Positions 1-56,342 of a stretch of 64,000 bases of DNA are shown in pieces. The DNA comes from Octopus vulgaris (lineage: Eukaryota): NCBI GenBank assembly GCA_951406725.2, contig OX597816.1, positions 87,234,001 to 87,298,000 on the forward strand. Reading direction: 5' to 3'. The translations under genes were made by a program, and so were the position numbers. The notes under the pieces were generated by a model. That model made no database searches. It saw only the letters and a program-made list of their open reading frames with translations, and was not told where the DNA came from. Each line of letters opens with the position of its first letter. Position 1 is the stretch's first letter.

Positions 1-876
1 CGCCACGGGAAATCTAAGCCAAGTGCATTAGATCCCCTGGAAGAAAGCTTCGAATGTATACAACACGAGGACGGAAAACGAACGAAGTGCACGAACAAAA
101 ATACAGAATACGTGACAACAATAAGAATACAAAAACGTAAAAACAATAACGGTAAAAATAAAGTATAACAAATAAACAACAAAACAAAACCAGGACGTAG
201 GACAAGGGTCTTTCGACAGGACGAATTGAGCATGGGGCAGGCTTATGAAGTTGTGCCTAATGGCCACAGGGAGACGAACAAGTACGTGTTGCTTCAACGG
301 CTGCTGGAACGAAAAGAGCGTTCAACAGCGGCTAGCGGTCACGTGAGAACAAAAGACAAGAGAAAGGGACAGATGAAAAGAGAGAGAAAAGGTGGACGAG
401 GGAGGAGAAGAAAGAGACAGATCGAGGGGGCTGGAGGTGAGAGAGATAGAGAAACGTAGAAGGGGGGGGGGAAACGGATGGAGAGGGAAAGAAAGGAGGG
501 GGAATAAGGGAGGAGAGAGAGAGAGAAAGAAAGATTAAGAGTCGTATCAATGCTTGAGAAAAAAATATACATATCGTATAAGGACAATTGTGGATACGTA
601 GCCGCCGATTATATAGGTAAACAGTAAAAATAATTACAGACATGGACAAGAACATGAAACGCCACAGAGACGACACAAGAACCACAGGACGGGACATTCG
701 AAGCCCTCAGTCATCAGTCAAGAACCAGATCATCTTAGCAATTTCGGCTGATTAATCTTGAGATTGCTCCGATATGGCCAGCCCGCCACGGGAAATCTAA
801 GCCAAGTGCATTAGATCCCCTGGAAGAAAGCTTCGAATGTATACAACACGAGGACGGAAAACGAACGAAGTGCACG

Positions 877-22770: not shown

Positions 22771-23087
22771 ACAGTTCTATATTTAAGAGATGAGGAATTA
22801 TGTACATTATTTACATTATTTACATTCGACAGAAATTTGTTCTCATCTTGTTTGTTGTAAACACAACGTTACGACTGATATACCCTCCAGCCTTCATCAG
22901 GTGTCTTGGGGAAATTTCGAACCTGGGTTTTCATACCTAATGTATTTTTCGATGCTGTTATTATTATTATTGCTCGGGTCACTGCTTGGAATCGAACTCG
23001 AAATCTTGGGGCTAGTAGCCGGCGCTCTTAGCCACAATGCCATATTCCCGTGGGTATATGACAAATATCTGTCGAATGTAAATAATG
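22771..23087 (-). mobile_element. tRNA-headed, hammerhead-bearing SINE-like element with an inverted terminal segment and 14-bp TSD
   Basis: Minus strand: A box TGGCATTGTGG, B box GTTCGATTC, (AAT)n, then an HHR. 23061-23087 is an inverted copy of ~22801-22840. TSD TACTCAACGGTTTT at 22757-22770 and 23088-23101. Confidence 0.85.
22860..22905 (-). ncRNA. Minimal type I hammerhead, mutated (GUAA for GAAA)
   Basis: GACAC-CUGAUGA-A-GGCUG-loop-CAGUC-GUAA-CG-UU-GUGUU. The intact version is at 51112-51157. Confidence 0.6.
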
Positions 23088-30410: not shown

Positions 30411-31810
30411 CTTTGTAGGAAGTTAACTATATGGCCAGTCATAGAGTAACCAATGGTTTCGCATCCATAAAGCTCTTAGCCTTATAAACGCCTCGTCGGA
30501 CTCTAATGGCCACAGGTATATAACCTCTTTTCAAATTGGAGATAGAAAAACGTTACGGCCATTTAATTTTTGTAAGCAAAAAAATATCTATTTTCCGAAG
30601 TAGGACGGGGTTTTTGCTCTTAGATCAGTTCCAGTTGGCAAATTTTTTTACGACTCTAATCAACAAATGGGGAATCCTACACTTGCAGTAGGTAGCGTTT
30701 AAAGTCTGGACAAGGACCAAAGATCTCTTTTCTGGAATTCAAAAGGGCCCGGATCTAGCGAGTCTTTTAGGATCCTTGCCTGCTCTGCTGTGCAAAGCTT
30801 GCATCGTCTGCTCCCGTTTATATAAGACCCCGGTTGTTCAAGGACCCTCCATTTAATATCAGAACCTTCAACCTTTGGGCGCTACACGTGGCTGGACAGG
30901 GACAAGACGTAACGCCTTTCCGGAATCCTAAAAGACGACGTGTGGTTGTACAAGCGTCACTTAAAGGCAGCTCCGTCCAAACCGATGTATCTCCGAATTT
31001 GTGTGCTGGGTGCATTATCGCCTCTGATCTTTATTCCGTTATCCCCGGTTCTGATGTTGCTGCTGCTGTTATTGGAGCTATTGTCAGGAATATTACTACT
31101 GGGCGTGAGTTTTGTAGTTCCGCTGTTGCTGGCATAGTAGGCATCTCCGACCGCAGTGTTGATGTTGCTACTGATGGTAGTGGTGGTGGTGGTGGTGGTG
31201 TTGCTGGAGCTTTTGTCAATGTTGTTATTTCTGGGCGTGAGACCGGTAGTTCCCCTGTTGCTGGCGGAACAGTTATCTCCGGCTGTAATTCTGATGTTGG
31301 TCGCCGCTGCCATTGTTGTTGCCTTTGTTGCTCGATGTGCTGCTGCTGTTACTCTGGTTGTTATGCCAGTTACCACTACGGCCTTATATAGGACACCTCG
31401 GCCTCGAATTGGCCTCCCACTGAGCAGTCATTGTACTGTCTTTATGAACAACCTGCGTCTGCTCGCATTTTAGGGACGTTCACTAAGTTTTTCAATGCTG
31501 GGTGAGCAACTAAAGGAGACCCCTAGACTGTGCTTATTGTGCAAACTTCCGTACCTATGGAACTACGTAAAGTGCCTGTACACTAACCTATGGAAAATCC
31601 TTACCACACACGTTTTAAAATTGGGAAAGAGAGGTGAAGCAAACCAAACGACTTTCCGGTGGTGCTTCCTTTTGCGGGCAGGTGCTAGGCTCCAGCATAT
31701 AGGAGATGCGGGTTTTAAAACCACTGGATGCCAGGGCCTCGTTATGATAGGGGGCCGCGACGTCGAGGTCTCTTGATTCGATGACATGTTCGAGATGCTT
31801 CTTTTTCGGA
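30410..31810 (-). other. Unidentified degraded coding-like segment (probable TE relic) with a Pro/Thr-rich internal duplication
   Basis: Higher GC and complexity than the flanks, bounded by microsatellites. Related blocks at ~31075-31150 and ~31205-31280. No domain recognised. Confidence 0.3.
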
Positions 31811-34543: not shown

Positions 34544-34685
34544 CATTCAGAGTTTTCTATCTTCAGTCGAGTTCCAGATTATCTTTGCAATTTCTGCTGA
34601 TAATACTCGAGATTGCTCCAGTCTGGCCAGCCCCAAGGAAAGATAATCTAAAAGCATTAGATTCTTTGGAAGGAAGCAACGAATG
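34544..34685 (-). ncRNA. Rearranged hammerhead, copy 2 (C11.1 mutated); predicted cut after 34611
   Basis: GGCUGG-CCAGACU-GGA-GCAAU-C-UCGAGU-AUUA-UCAGCA-GAA-AUUGC-AAAGAU-AAUCUGG-A-ACUCGA-CUGAAGA. Confidence 0.7.
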
Positions 34686-35317: not shown

Positions 35318-35459
35318 CATTCGGAGTTTTCTATCCTCAGTCGAGTTCCAGATTATCTTTGCAATTTCGGTTGGTCATACTCGAGATTGCTCCAATCTGG
35401 CCAGCCCCAAGGAAAAATAAGCTAAGAACATTACATTCCTTGGAAGAAAACAGCGAATG
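35318..35459 (-). ncRNA. Rearranged hammerhead, copy 3; predicted cut after 35385
   Basis: GGCUGG-CCAGAUU-GGA-GCAAU-C-UCGAGU-AUGA-CCAACC-GAA-AUUGC-AAAGAU-AAUCUGG-A-ACUCGA-CUGAGGA. Confidence 0.72.
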
Positions 35460-40811: not shown

Positions 40812-40976
40812 TAAATCTTAGGGTAGCAAAAAAATTTAGAAAAATTCTTCGCTACCAGTGATCTAGCGAGAAGTGGTTTGAAGTTTAACTACTCTTTCTA
40901 GTGAGTCAGATATCCTATTATGGTCATCTCTTATGTGTTTAAATGCACACTGTATTTTTCTTTATATATATATATA

Positions 40977-41867
40977 ACAAAACTTACTTGGAGGAGATGA
41001 AACGAAACGAAAACGAATCGAATCGACGCGAGGGCGCTCAGTCATACAATAGTGTAATAAATAAAATATATGCATACATACATATATGTACGTACCTACA
41101 TCTACATGTATATATACATGCATATATAAATATATATACGTGAGTACAGGACACTACAAATAGACGTAGAACTCAACGAGAAACGAAAACGTAAAAACAA
41201 ATGTGGAAACGGACCTAAACGAAAAAAAACAGAGTACAAGACAAACTACACAAGGAAAAATCCCCTTCATCAGCTGTTCAACTCCAGCGTGTTTCGAAGG
41301 TTGGAGAGAACACGACTCGTGGAACTAGTCCTTCCTGCGAAGGAATTAAATAAAATTACTTCGCAGAGGGGTAAAAACGAGGAAAGTTAAACATGTGACA
41401 AAAAAACGATACAAATAAAATTACAAAATAAAAACAAAATAAAAATACAAAATAAAAATACAAAAAATAAAAATACAGAATAAAATTACAAGTACGAAAA
41501 ATACAGTACAAGAAATAAAACAAACAAGAAAACAGACAATGAGGGCCTTAATGCTGGCCTACACGAGGAAAGATTCTAAGTGCGCTAGAAGAACAGTGTT
41601 CACTGTTTGAATGCCAGCGGCGAAATGAAGCAACTCGCCCGGCTGTGAAAGAGATGAGGATGAGTGAGAGAGAGAGAGAGGAAGACAAGCGGCTGTGAGA
41701 GAGAGAGGAGGAGGAGTGAGAGAGAGAGAGAGCGAGATAGGGAAGGAAAAGAAGGTCAAGCAAAGAGTTGTAGAGTTTCGCGTCACAAAACTTACTTGGA
41801 GGAGATGAAACGAAACGAAAACGAATTGAATCGACGCGAGGGCGCTCAGTCATACAATAGTGTAATA
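40977..41867 (-). mobile_element. Non-coding retrozyme/Penelope-like element, 808-bp unit with an 83-bp terminal direct repeat
   Basis: 40977-41059 repeats at 41785-41867 with one mismatch. Contains rearranged hammerhead copy 4. Confidence 0.75.
41259..41347 (-). ncRNA. Rearranged hammerhead, copy 4 (divergent family); predicted cut after 41309
   Basis: AAUUCCUU-CGCAG-GAAGG-ACU-AGUUCCA-CGAGU-CGUGU-U-CUCUCC-AA-CCUUC-GAA-ACACG-C-UGGAGUU-GAACAG-CUGAUGA-AGGGGAUU. Same strand order as copies 1-3; stem I has two mismatches. Confidence 0.6.
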
Positions 41868-42243: not shown

Positions 42244-44462
42244 TATTTCAAAACATTTGCCATAAAGGCAGTACACAGATTAAGTTAGCTTTGCGGGCTG
42301 GACGAGGACATTAATGAAGTGAATGATAATGAAAGAAAGATGATAAGGATGGGAGAAGACAAAAAGCGCCCGCCGACTTTCGCTTCTCTAAAACATTGTT
42401 CTTTTTAAAGATAAACACAAAACGAGGTATTAACCTCTTACAATTTTTCCAATTTTTGGACTTAGCAGTCCATTATTACAAAACGTATTAAACCTCTTAC
42501 AATTTTCAATTTTTGGACTTACGGTTCAATAATTACATATCGTCCTCGAAATAGCTTGTGCCCGCGCCCTCCACCATCAACCACGCCTCCCTCAGAACGT
42601 AATCAAGTTCCGAGTTTGCGTCGCCCGGGACCAAGTTATAATCTTCATTGAGCTCCTTTAGCCCAAGCGTCACGTCGAACGCCACGGCCTCCACAGCTAC
42701 CTGCGGAGGCCATTCGGGGTCCTGTGTGAAGGCTAAAGGTGCTCCCTTGTGGTGCTCTTCCATCACCTTTTCAATTTCGCCTCCTCTATAGAAGAGGACC
42801 AATACGTTCAGTTCTTTCGTTGGCGGCACAGTTCCCGCCAACGGTATTCCTTCTCTTGTCGGTGGCACAACCCCAACCGACGTAGTTCCGGGACATTCCG
42901 GTGCTATGTCACTGACAGCCGGCAATGTCCCGTTTTTCTTCCTCTTTTTCTTTTTTTTTCCCTTTTCAACTGAGGGAGGGTGCGTCTCCTCCGTGGCCGG
43001 AAGATTCGCCTTCCTCTCCTCATCCCTATTATCCTTTGGTGAACACCCATTGTTGCTCACCTTCCTCTTTCGGCCTCTGTTTGAGGAGTCCTCTGCTTTC
43101 TCGGCCGTTATCATTCCCTCTTCTAGAGGGGTTTTACTTAACTGTTCCGGGATCCTATTTTGTTCCCGGGGACAGTTCTTCTTTATGTGGCCGGACTCCA
43201 AGCACCGATGACACTTAGGGGGGCGACCCTCAAGCATCACCGGGTACCTGCACCCGGCCATTTTCAAAAAATCTGGAAGAACCAGATTGGCTGATTGGGT
43301 CCACAGGGTCAAAATTGCTTTTGACCCAACCCAAGCAGCCGCAGGAAGAACTTTTACATTAAGGAGCTTAGTTTCGCAGCCACCCAGACCCGGCGGATAG
43401 TCTCCTCTATCCACTCGGGTTCTATGTCGGGTGGCAGCCCGCAGATCCAAGCTTTCATCAATTTCTTTTTTTTGTACGTGGGCAGGAATAAGATTTCCTT
43501 ACCCTCCAGGGGTTTGCTAGCAAATTTGCAAGCCTCCTCAGGGGTGTCAAATAGCAACCACGTCGTTGCATATTTGACACCCCTGGAAATGAATTTAATT
43601 GTTAGCAAATACTCTTCCAACTCCTTTTCAATTGCCGTCTTTTCGAATAGGGCGATGGTGTCGAGTGCCTTGGAGTAGGTTCTCAACACCACCGTCCTAT
43701 CTTCACGGTCTTTTAACCACTTTTTAGGTGGTATGATTTCCCACTCCAAAATTTTGTTATTTTTCATTGCCATGTTTTTTTTAAATATATTCAAATTAAA
43801 CTCAAAAAGCAAGAAGAAAAAAGTTCAAAAGTCCAAATAAAATTTGATAGATTTTTGAAAAAACAAAAAGGGGAAAGCACAACAGAAGGGAAGAAATCAA
43901 CGGAAAGTCGCAATAAAGAAAAAAAACAAAATGGGGGTTAAATGAAGTTCAAAAGAAAGTTAATAAACAGAAAAAACACAGCAAAAATATTCTGGCCTTG
44001 CGGTACTCCCGGCCTGGGTTGAACCTGGAACGCCGCAACTGCAACACAATCTCCACAAAAATGGGTCCGAAAGGTAATCCAATAGTGGCTTATTTTCTTG
44101 CGAAGTACTCTGACAAGGGAATAAATTCAACAAACCCAAACACAGCACTGGCTACCGCCAACGGTAATTTTAACAGTAACTGTATTGAATTCCGAGGATT
44201 CGCCCCTCCACTGTTTTTTCTTTTTTTTTTTCAATGAACACAAAAACGGCAGCCGCCGAGAGCAGGCGAAATTGTCTCAGAGTTGGACACAACTTACTGA
44301 AATAATAATTGGCACGCAATAAATTATGCCCAACTCACAATAAACAAAATCACTTACCTCGACAACTTTCCGTTTTTGGTCTTTTTTCTTTAATTGGACG
44401 GAGCTGGTTGACTCGCGTCCACTCTGGCTGAACAGGAAGCAACTGACTAACTGCGCATGTGC
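42244..44462 (-). mobile_element. ORF1-only non-LTR (L1/Tx1-like) retroelement with a 15-bp TSD
   Basis: TSD GTTAGCAAGCTACTT at 42229-42243 and 44463-44477. Single gag-like ORF, no EN/RT. The 3' end reads ...GAAATA(AA). Confidence 0.85.
42533..43773 (-). pseudogene. LINE ORF1p-like nucleic-acid-binding protein (~413 aa) with one frameshift near 43390
   Basis: ORFs 43354-43812 and 42533-43450 join with one added base (EETIRR/GLGGCE). CCHC knuckle CHRCLESGHIKKNC; basic KKKKKRKK tract. Confidence 0.8.
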
Positions 44463-50378: not shown

Positions 50379-50551
50379 ACAGTTCAATATTTAAGAGATG
50401 AGGAATTATGTACATTATTTACATTAGACGGATATTTGTCCTCATCCTGTTTGTTGTTAACACAACGTTTCAGCTGATATACCCTCCAGCCTTCATCAGG
50501 TGTCCTGGGGAAATTTCGAACCTGGGTTCTCATTCCTAAGGTATTTTTCGA

Positions 50552-51057: not shown

Positions 51058-51205
51058 TCACTGCTCGGGATCGAACTCGAAGTCTTGGGGTTAAGAGCGA
51101 AATTTCCTCAAGACACCTGATGAAGGCTGGATGGTACATCAGCCGAAACGTTGTGTTAACAGCAAACAAGATGAGGACATATATATCCGTCTAATGTAAA
51201 TAATG
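50379..51205 (-). mobile_element. Second copy of the tRNA/(AAT)n/hammerhead element, with an expanded ~500-bp (ATT/GTT) tract and a ~105-bp inverted arm
   Basis: 50379-50555 matches 22771-22955; B-box half of the head at 51053-51092; inverted arm 51098-51205. TSD AACATCAACAAG (50367-50378) / AACATCGACAAG (51206-51217). HHR at 50459-50504 on the minus strand. Confidence 0.85.
51112..51157 (+). ncRNA. Minimal type I hammerhead, intact core
   Basis: GACAC-CUGAUGA-A-GGCUG-GAUGGUACAU-CAGCC-GAAA-CG-UU-GUGUU. Confidence 0.75.
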
Positions 51206-54149: not shown

Positions 54150-54800
54150 CCTCAGACGCAAGTATCCACTGGCACTGCATGCGAAGTGAATATCGGCATA
54201 TATCTGATATTGTTAGTGGGATTGAAAAGTTACTATTTAGTTGGAAGGTTGAATAACAGTTCGTTATTAATAACTGCGATATTTGTTATAGACAAGAGCG
54301 ATATGAGTTAAACAAATATCAATTACGATAACAAATCCAAGAAAAATAGAATGGGTAATAAAAAATTACTTGTGTGACGCACCCTTCAGGATTCATATAA
54401 CCACAAACATCCGAGGTAAATTCTGAAATAATATTTTTTCTTTAAAGTAGGTATCGAAAAATATTCGATCGGCATACTGTAAAACTTGCATACTCTTCTA
54501 CACCTAAATTGGCAGATATTATAGCGACACTTAACACAAAAACATTGAACACTTTCGAGACGAAAAAACCTACTAGTTCTTATTCTGGGAATATAAAACA
54601 ATCTACGTTCACCTTCAGTGAAACTCATATATCTACTTATGATAAAGAGGCCGATAGCATCTTCATGTCTTATATAGAGCATGGTATTAACGCCAATACA
54701 TTAAATAGAAACTATTACAGCTATAGGCCTAGAGAAATATGTAACTGTAGAAACCGTTTAAGTATAATGCCTAAGGTAAAAATGCATAAATGTTCGGTAG
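54150..54800 (+). pseudogene. Possible degraded Penelope-like RT-to-endonuclease linker region
   Basis: TLNTFETKKPTSSYSGNIKQ and EICNCRNR(..C..KC) resemble the KxSYS..N.K and CNCR..CP..GKC motifs of PLE ORFs. Many stops and frameshifts. Confidence 0.45.
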
Positions 54801-55159
54801 TAACACCTGGAAGTGTATATTACTACATAAACATTTCTGTTACAAAATTTATGATCATATGTATAATCGTGTAAGGGTGACTGATACCAGGACCACTCAT
54901 TTCAGGAAAACTCATATCGGACAATTGATTTGTAGGACAACTTATAAAGTAATAAAGATTTGATTTTGAAAGAAAAATCAAGTAAGAATAAAATAACAAA
55001 TATTGAAGGAAAAACGGGGTATTTTTCTTTTTTGGACAATGAAAACTAAAAATATTAAAGACTGTCAATATAAAAGGAATTTACTAAAACTGAAACTACG
55101 TGCAGATTATATGCCACAGCTTTTAAGGAAGACATTTTCTGGCAAGGATTATACTTTTC

Positions 55160-55610
55160 AAGAAAAAATTATCAGTCGCTTGTTGTGGTCTTTGTAAACC
55201 TGTTTTGAAGTTATTTGCACTCCGCGTTCCAAATCAATTTTCTTTTTCTGTGCCAAAACTTTAGTGTATTTATTGATTTTCAGATATTCGGATGTTGAAG
55301 TTGAATTTTGTAAGGCATTATGAAAATCTTCAAGGCTATTATTAGTTCTAGTCATGCCAGTTGAAACCCTCTCTCAAATATTCCATACTTCAATTGGAAT
55401 TATTGGAGCCAGATGATATCTTGTAGCGCCTCTTCCTCTTTCAGGTCCTATGTAAGTCATTTCAAAATACGACACAAATTCTTGTGGCAAACCTTCGTTG
55501 TCGGACAGTTCGTATGCTACAATAACATTATTCACTGGTAAAAAAAAAAAAAACAAGTGCTGTAAAGCACTTTATCTTTAGACGAAATACTTCATCAGTA
55601 TTATACAGTG
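55160..55610 (-). pseudogene. MULE (Mutator-like) transposase C-terminal relic
   Basis: YNTDEVFRLKIKCFTAL..FLP, FVSYFEMTYIG, PIEVWNI and RTNNSLEDFHNAL follow the MULE-type RTNNxxEGxH pattern. Confidence 0.75.
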
Positions 55611-56342
55611 AAGTGAAGCAAACTAGCGTCTGCTTCACTTCCCTGATGAGGTCTTAAAAAGCCGAAGCATATCCAAAGTTGCCGCTATACTGTTTAAAAT
55701 TATACCCACTTCCCATTGCAATCTGTATTTAATTTTAATTCATTCAAATTTTGGTGTTGTCTCCCGCATATGTTTGAACAGAAATAGTTATTTAGAGAGA
55801 TTTGTTCCCATTAGTTTAGTTGTAAAGTTAATACATTGAATTTCTTTTGCTTGAAACACAGTGGACTCTGTTAAAGCACCGAAAGAAGCTAGCACGTATT
55901 CGTGTAGAACTGAGAGACAGATTAAATCATAACGAAAGCATGGCAACAATTGGCAGCTGCTATACAGTTTCTGCTTAAGATTGTATAAGTTGTAAAGTAT
56001 CGCTTGCTACACCAAAAAATGCTTTGCTCATGGTGAAAGTTAGAATAATGCTTTTGCAAGCTCTGCAATTGCTTTAGATTATATTACACCATTGGAAAGA
56101 AACAGGGAAGTAAATATTGATTCCTGCATATCCAAATCAAACAGGTTAAGCAAGCAGGAATTAAACTCCAGTGGTACAAGAAATAATTATATATGCTTTG
56201 GATATGAGTGGAAACGGAAAAGGAAGCAAGCCGTTTTCTTTCTTCGTCGATTTTCAGTTAAAATCACGAATTGTTTATTTTTCCTTGGTTATGTTAACCA
56301 GTTATGAAATGTCATAATATATTTCTGCTCTCACTTTCTCTT

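Follow-up and report, generated by a model that had tools for sequence, protein, structure and literature searches.

The stretch of DNA analyzed here (the window) comprises 64,000 nucleotides of the Octopus vulgaris genome. It carries, inserted in its minus strand, a copy of a noncoding Penelope-like repeat, F3 (Table 1; the family labels F1 to F8 and the helix label P were coined in this analysis), made up of an 808-bp unit plus either a repeated start or a tail, and ending 3' in a (TA)n run. The two copies of the 83-nt terminal direct repeat lie 808 bp apart, the downstream one being present in part of the F3 copies. About 290 nt from the 3' end of the repeat lies the motif described below, a rearranged hammerhead. 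A frameshifted gag-like ORF upstream on the same strand (42533 to 43824; zinc knuckle PF00098, E 0.0099, under the curated cutoff) was considered as a part of F3 and rejected, as it is split off by a common short repeat and is not found beside other copies. It probably represents the ORF1 of some non-LTR element with no relation to F3.

Table 1. Positions in the window of the F3 insertion, the strands of its motif, and copies of the sister families
Feature	Positions	Strand	Basis or remark
F3 insertion, noncoding Penelope-like repeat	40963..41867	-	Extent of homology to other copies, direct repeat, 25-mer and pattern counts
83-nt terminal direct repeat, upstream copy (partial tandem, pLTR-like)	41785..41867	-	99% identical; family D7
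83-nt terminal direct repeat, downstream copy (optional 3' extension, tail)	40977..41059	-	
Closing helix, 5' strand CCCCU	41367..41371	-	99.5% of cells paired; folding
Extra hairpin P, CUGCGAAG (41366-41359) with CUUCGCAG (41342-41335)	41335..41366	-	92% paired; folding
Stem II, 5' strand GAAGG, first base G10.1	41330..41334	-	97.7% paired
Brace (stem I-II interaction helix), 5' strand CUAGUUC	41322..41328	-	90.8% paired; three pairs changed on both sides
Stem III strand CGUGU (16.5-16.1)	41310..41314	-	Window letters; F3 alignment
H17 (U), cleavage predicted just 3'	41309..41309	-	Analogy to hammerhead core; 5'-end step of copies
Stem I strand 1.1-1.6, CUCUCC in the window copy	41303..41308	-	CUGUCC in 30 of 32 copies
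Block G: II' CCUUC, G12-A13-A14-A15.1, III CACG	41288..41300	-	Window letters; F3 alignment
Brace' and I' remnant, joined by 7-nt deletion	41274..41282	-	Deletion in 1 of 32 aligned rows
Core CUGAUGA (C3-A9)	41267..41273	-	Found in window letters
Closing helix, 3' strand AGGGG, directly 3' of A9	41262..41266	-	Alignment and folding
F1 copy, same architecture, other helix sequences, partly decayed	35327..35449	-	
Second F1 copy, partial tandem 774 bp downstream	34553..34675	-	
F1b copy, compensated stem I	703..829	-	Sole window copy passing the strict descriptor

Read 5' to 3', the motif runs closing helix, hairpin P, II, brace, III', H17, I, a link of 2 to 5 nt, II', GAAA, III, brace', I', CUGANGA, and the second strand of the closing helix. 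Residues are given in hammerhead numbering. The core (C3-U4-G5-A6-N7-G8-A9 with G12-A13-A14) is that of the hammerhead class, and in intact family copies stems I to III are flush with it, the U16.1-A15.1 and G10.1-C11.1 pairs are present, and H17 is not G. The initial annotation of this locus had proposed the strand order from stem II to CUGAUGA, with cleavage after 41309. All the words that it quoted are present, from 41347 to 41259 on the minus strand; the order is borne out, and the cut was correctly placed, H17 being U41309. What stands of that proposal is the rearranged, pseudoknotted hammerhead core with the 5' strand of stem II upstream, while the idea of a compact third version falls, the copy being a decayed family member. 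In particular, the extra hairpin said to be missing is there: CUGCGAAG pairs with CUUCGCAG with a probability of 0.96 to 1.0 in all four copies folded and covaries, and the span, put at about 90 nt, is about 110 nt in the window copy, against 117 nt for an undamaged motif. The brace read as AGUUCCA/UGGAGUU is a register left by a deletion, the family brace being CUAGUUC/GAACUAG. For the mismatched stem I, reversion toward a strand pairing with GAACAG, or covariation, had been predicted; the stem is indeed repaired in the family, as CUGUCC/GGACAG in 30 of the 32 aligned best matches, with GGACAG instead of GAACAG as the partner, and one subfamily has the covarying CUGCCC/GGGCAG. The inactive pairing of GAAGG (including G8 and A9) with CCUUC, raised as a caveat, has a probability of at most 0.03 in all four folds with the true closing helix, under a nested model that excludes pseudoknots.

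The window copy itself is a decayed F3 member that is very likely unable to cleave. Among the 32 aligned best matches, a 7-nt deletion across brace' and I' is private to this copy, and a G-to-C change (CUCUCC) is found only in it and in one other locus (L002). Because of these two lesions stem I and the brace are broken, brace' being deleted, whereas stems II and III are intact. Stem I keeps four of its six pairs, with a helix energy of +1.0 kcal/mol against -12.1 in an intact copy (L003), and the brace stands at +0.5 against -11.0 kcal/mol. A chance alternative register, with the cut after 41314, has a mismatch at 1.1-2.1 and another in stem III and would be unlikely to function. No hammerhead was found among the 150 Rfam matches listed of 320 for the window, nor at E <= 10 in seven loci (five F3, two F1); the Rfam matches obtained were to miRNA families only, driven by microsatellites, and were set aside. 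CUGAUGA is weakly enriched in the window (14 occurrences versus 8.9 expected, 5 of 100 shuffles being as high), and the 98-nt span initially annotated folds weakly on its own (z = -1.3). The case therefore rests on the comparison of copies and families.

In the genome searched (2.8 Gb, 227 contigs), one exact F3 25-mer occurs 401 times, and two mutually exclusive F3 patterns gave 188 and 743 matches (reversed controls, 0), i.e., at least 931 exact-pattern copies. The copies are 5' truncated, often with a partial or inverted piece upstream; each ends in (TA)n at one of two positions about 86 nt apart. By eye, in 60 loci of which a few are the same insertion, 23 of the 3' ends lay in (TA)n, 24 ran into the extension, and 13 were unclassified. 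F3 thus shows the marks of a Penelope-like element (PLE), namely a partial-tandem pLTR, inverted 5' pieces, an optional tail, and AT-rich targets. None of the F3 loci scanned has an ORF of its own, and no F3 copy was found joined to a coding region of its own. At one locus (L013:1-1241; G000:C20), a Neptune-like reverse transcriptase (RT)-endonuclease ORF is joined to a 5'-truncated F3 copy about 30 nt past the stop codon. A link of F3 to this ORF was rejected, since the junction was seen in only 1 of 30 loci and the other 29 have their own 3' UTR; it is possibly a template switch. The F3 element is also present in the Logan contigs of four runs (organism labels A to D), which do not resolve RNA ends.

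Covariation was assessed over 36 pairs in 44 F3 copies, namely, the window copy and 43 of the 116 distinct full-length copies, picked so as to balance the subfamilies. In 95.2% of cells the six helices are paired, compared to 36 to 48% in slid controls, and seven pairs (38 cells) are changed on both sides; none of 500 shuffles, which ignore relatedness, was as high in either cells paired or cells compensated. The two-sided changes fall in P, in the brace, i.e., the peripheral interaction of stem I with stem II, and in stem I; one pair of P, for instance, is G-C in 20 copies and A-U in 13. No two-sided change was found in stems II and III or the closing helix inside F3, so that support for these comes from other families. 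In nested folding, a model that cannot form pseudoknots, the closing helix CCCCU/AGGGG has a pair probability of 0.67 to 0.99 in the three copies that are intact, against 0.01 in the window copy. Hairpin P abuts both the closing helix and G10.1 with a linker length of zero.

The same order with different helix sequences is retained in families F1, F4, F4b, F5, F6, and F8 of the same genome. A family-blind pattern based on the GAAA-to-CUGAUGA spacing, designed to exclude F1 and F3, gave 479 genome matches versus 110 for its reversed control; F4, F4b, F5, and F6 were found in the first 30 plus 20 picked loci of these matches, and F8 was found in flanks. Across families stem II reads GAAGG/CCUUC, GGCUG/CAGCC, GAGCA/UGCUC, or GACAC/GUGUC, and what remains constant is the letters of the core, the G10.1-C11.1 and U16.1-A15.1 pairs, and an H17 other than G (U, C, or A). 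The best copies of F1, F3, F5, and F8 form 28 of 28 pairs with zero-length junctions. In F1a, stem II must use the upstream strand because no sequence downstream of the core is able to pair with II'. Most F1a copies (e.g., at window position 35333) have U, not A, directly 3' of A9, which creates a U-U mismatch at the first closing pair and might lower activity. A strict descriptor of the architecture gave 50 hits in 1.85 Mb and a tolerant one, with zero-length junctions, 113 distinct hits in 2.05 Mb, real-side counts that are not unbiased rates as the loci were chosen for the families; in dinucleotide shuffles the strict descriptor had no hits in 11.07 Mb, nor had the tolerant one in 10.23 Mb of shuffles. 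At one locus (L362:1678-1990, minus strand), some 280 nt separates an F6 motif from an F4b motif of the same orientation, which suggests a unit that is chimeric or holds two ribozymes.

The architecture also extends to published elements. Craig et al. (2021; PMC8557442) reported Naiads as lacking a canonical hammerhead, with cores not fitted to a structure, and eight elements, including Naiad_Ovul and Naiad_Esco, are marked "HHR_half_core." In File S5 of that work, F5 is the 3' end (3' UTR) of Naiad_Obim and Naiad_Ovul, with all helices present; the closing helix is imperfect in the two consensuses and has six pairs in three genomic loci (L396, L398, and L404). F5 has 102 exact matches in the genome. 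At three further loci (L373, L411, and L412), the C terminus of a Naiad ORF lies 0.8 to 1.4 kb upstream of the F5 motif, a match made by eye because Pfam gave no PLE family for the short Naiad ORF fragments; across the ORF fragments searched, a weak zinc knuckle was the sole Pfam match.

By eye, the same order is present in at least 11 of the 54 Naiad consensuses in File S5 (PMC8557442), a minimum in that line breaks in the file may hide motifs. These are Obim, Ovul, Esco (with an imperfect stem II), three from Acropora, Beroe (whose stem I has two pairs), and Movir-2; three more, placed only by their order in the file, are a Clytia record, one that follows the Plae header, and one from a crustacean. 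The hosts are hence a ctenophore, cnidarians, and cephalopods, joined, on the basis of file order, by a crustacean and by either an acanthocephalan or a rotifer. In the parts of the file available, the split-core motif was absent by eye from Omin, CGi, and Movir-1 and from the final ~600 nt of Chem-1 and Chem-2. At least six nematode Naiads (Nbra-1, -2, and -3, Hcon, and two by file order) show, again by eye, a C-S-G order with the brace, and these 3' UTR motifs look like complete type-CSG hammerheads, a type reported so far from two metagenomic sequences only. The 3' UTRs of spider, ostracod, and crab Naiads (File S5, parts 16 to 19) have CUGANGA after CCCC, with no fit by eye; they are possibly further permutations.

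Taken at the level of sequence comparison, the pairings are established by covariation and by their return in other families and in published Naiads; the zero-length junctions, the location in Naiad 3' UTRs, and the decay of the window copy are observed. The feature is real and is a new variant within a known ribozyme class. Partial tandems, tails, and (TA)n target features are hallmarks of PLEs and of Naiads in particular (PMC8557442, PMC11167929); F3 matches them in inserting into (TA)n, in having either of two 3' ends, and in occurring with partial tandems and with 5' pieces that are inverted. We infer that F3 depends on a Naiad, by whose type of enzyme it would be mobilized in trans.

We are fairly confident that intact F3 copies encode a self-cleaving split-core hammerhead, located near the 3' end of Naiad-type PLEs and of likely nonautonomous partners. 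As in type SGC, the blocks stand in the order S-G-C and the same brace is present; the difference is a chain opened between A9 and G10.1. At this point A9 would run into the closing helix and hairpin P into G10.1, stem II stacking on the G12-A9 pair as usual and the closing helix on P. Because the closing helix, P, and stem II abut without a linker, the interval between A9 and G10.1 is predicted to be occupied by a perfect four-way junction, which would hold the nicked core together. A perfect four-helix junction also scaffolds the catalytic core of the natural hairpin ribozyme, an unrelated core, where its role is to dock two loops; in the F3 motif it would instead span the break in the core strand. 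As stem III is of full length in cis, the intact RNA is expected to cut 3' of H17 as a monomer. Through such cleavage, tandem or read-through transcripts would yield templates whose 5' end is defined, and reverse transcription, starting internally near the 3' end of the element, would stop at or shortly before the cut.

The genomic 5' ends of F3 copies bear on this. An early pile-up at +6 to +8 was discarded, as it lay at the edge of the search pattern, and a pattern lying 3' of the motif was used instead. Among the first 100 of its 188 matches, 39 ends were in view, of which 22 lay at +1 to +20 and 3 at -1 to -20 (binomial p 8e-5), the best change point being -1; 10 ends fell at +1 to +9, and none at -21 to -30, the base of hairpin P, at which a polymerase stalled by the structure would be expected to halt. 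The ends are spread over +1 to +47 and are not sharp at +1. A further 30 F3 loci, inspected by eye, had seven ends at +10 to +22 and none at +1 to +9 or -1 to -55, which is compatible with a cut or with stalling alike. In F1 the step at the cut was absent (14 versus 9 ends, p 0.2, in 80 of 112 matches), the ends clustering from -26 to +19. At the genome level, the step at the predicted F3 cut is a hint of cleavage in vivo.

These distributions are also what can be said for the strongest of the other explanations, in our estimation an unlikely one, namely, that the fold is real and hammerhead derived and acts mainly as a noncatalytic or protein-dependent signal (a binding site, a transcript end, or a polymerase block), the excess of 5' ends reflecting stalling of the RT. 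The lack of a step and the clustering of ends in F1 would fit, as would the scatter of F3 ends across the 3' strands of the helices. Moreover, the hammerhead of the Anolis PLE Poseidon depended on protein and was not required for insertion in vitro (PMC11167929), and of nine Xenopus retrozyme dimers eight failed to cleave (10.64898/2026.07.22.740005). Against it, the catalytic letters are all kept while every helix sequence changes, and the end rate falls at -1. Ten F3 ends lie at +1 to +9, a stretch already unpaired when the polymerase arrives, and none at the base of the stable hairpin P; therefore, a cut fits better than polymerase stalling.

Regarding the architecture itself, Eckert et al. 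(2023; PMC10085705) split the hammerhead core into blocks C, G, and S, each assumed uninterrupted, derived six possible permutations from the assumption that the CUGANGA block cannot open, and validated type SGC, which with the same brace and a link of about 3 nt between stems I and II cleaves in vitro. The F3 motif shares with the type-SGC HRIMA-1 the S-G-C order of cleavage block, GAAA block, and CUGANGA, the pseudoknotted core, the ~3-nt link from stem I to II, and a brace helix joining the distal ends of these stems. Unlike in HRIMA-1, the 10.n strand and the brace are on the 5' side, the closing helix and the hairpin form the predicted perfect four-way junction, and the motif resides in animal genomic DNA, type SGC coming from metatranscriptomes only. 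As the stem II strand is upstream in every family, block C is interrupted, unlike in type SGC; nor is the order the circularly permuted C-G-S of types I to III as well as the Rfam families.

It is very improbable that the motif is an ordinary type-SGC hammerhead taking its stem II from the GGGG after CUGAUGA plus an extra A, with the upstream hairpin incidental. CUUC and GGGG could form four pairs, two of them G-U, and an extra nucleotide between 9 and 10.1, such as this A after A9, is common in PLE hammerheads (PMC4209133), but this pairing yields -4.1 kcal/mol, whereas the upstream stem II yields -8.7 and the closing helix, which draws on the same G run, -11.5. Furthermore, F1a, F4, and F5 have no downstream partner for II', and the upstream partner changes with II' in every family. 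Hardly tenable is the compact form of the initial annotation, with AAUUCCUU/AGGGGAUU as the closing arm, a 5-nt single strand to G10.1, and no hairpin. All eight pairs of this arm are possible in the window copy (-9.8 kcal/mol), but their probability is 0.00 in the four copies folded, the strand being taken by the covarying P; the energy is only -3.1 in L314, the partner of AGGGG is CCCCU (41371-41367), and all families have a hairpin and a closing helix flush against G10.1. As for a chance arrangement of short helices in a repeat, for which the CUGAUGA count and the z score of the isolated span might speak, its probability is negligible given the covariation, the recurrence in Naiads of several phyla, and two descriptors that hit the family-selected loci and nothing in 21 Mb of shuffles, in line with the initial claim that the arrangement is beyond chance. 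The split-core hammerhead is the reading we retain.

Among known PLE ribozymes, type-I minimal hammerheads (PMC4209133; 10.64898/2026.07.22.740005) similarly lie in the pLTR or 3' end of PLEs and in noncoding derivatives, are associated with partial tandems and a proposed role in precursor processing, and tolerate an insertion between 9 and 10.1. They are C-G-S in order, have a weak stem III, and work as dimers, whereas the split-core motif has at least 4 to 5 stem III pairs in cis, a noncircular order, and two helices in place of the one-base insertion. With Naiad PLEs (PMC8557442), the likeness consists of F5 being the Naiad_Obim/Naiad_Ovul 3' end, the (TA)n targeting, and the tails; unlike these, F3 has no coding region. 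The passages available from Perreault et al. (2011; PMC3088659) contain small core insertions only. Hammerhead variants with additional helices are mentioned in the accessible part of PMC13725137, which cites three works, one of them Eckert et al., and no such hammerhead was found in the available text of Forgia 2023 (PMC10162972); a similar extra helix may have been described before. No description of the split-core architecture was found in the literature searched, which includes few subscription papers and in which one paper uses the term type-SGC, or in the accessible text of the three works that name both Naiad and ribozyme. Neither is it described in the accessible text of the bioRxiv version of Craig et al., of PMC6155905, or of 10.64898/2026.10.21.760802.

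Overall, it seems probable that many Naiads retain a ribozyme, in the form of noncircularly permuted hammerheads invisible to standard descriptors, with the split-core form (ctenophore, cnidarian, crustacean, and cephalopod) cutting the element RNA in vivo and nematodes having type CSG. If true, these would be the first noncircular RNA permutations with covariation support in the genomes of named organisms, and the split core would be a seventh hammerhead architecture, breaking the rule stated by Eckert et al. that the CUGANGA block is indivisible. Noncircular permutations would thereby move from anonymous metatranscriptome contigs into animal genomes, in thousands of copies. The finding offers an answer to the reported absence of hammerheads from Naiads, which has been a basis for arguing that they are dispensable in PLE spread, and would explain part of the Naiad puzzle even though the window copy is very likely dead. 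The F3 5'-end step, in turn, would supply the hint of in vivo cleavage previously missing for PLE hammerheads, and the core opened at A9/G10.1 would be a new engineering site for ends or sensor hairpins.

Other PLE-related sequences lie in the same window. A repeat with a canonical type-I minimal hammerhead is found at 51113-51150 (plus strand), 50466-50503 (minus strand), and near 22900 (minus strand); with an extra A after A9 and a two-pair stem III, these are typical PLE/retrozyme motifs. Decayed Neptune-like PLE protein fragments are present at 54446-54874 (plus strand, recognized by eye) and 31488-31767 (minus strand, matching the L013 ORF at E 3e-8). At 55570-55670, CUGAUGA occurs in inverted orientation on both strands around a GAAGUGAAGCA/UGCUUCACUUC hairpin, an arrangement for which no hammerhead order was fitted.
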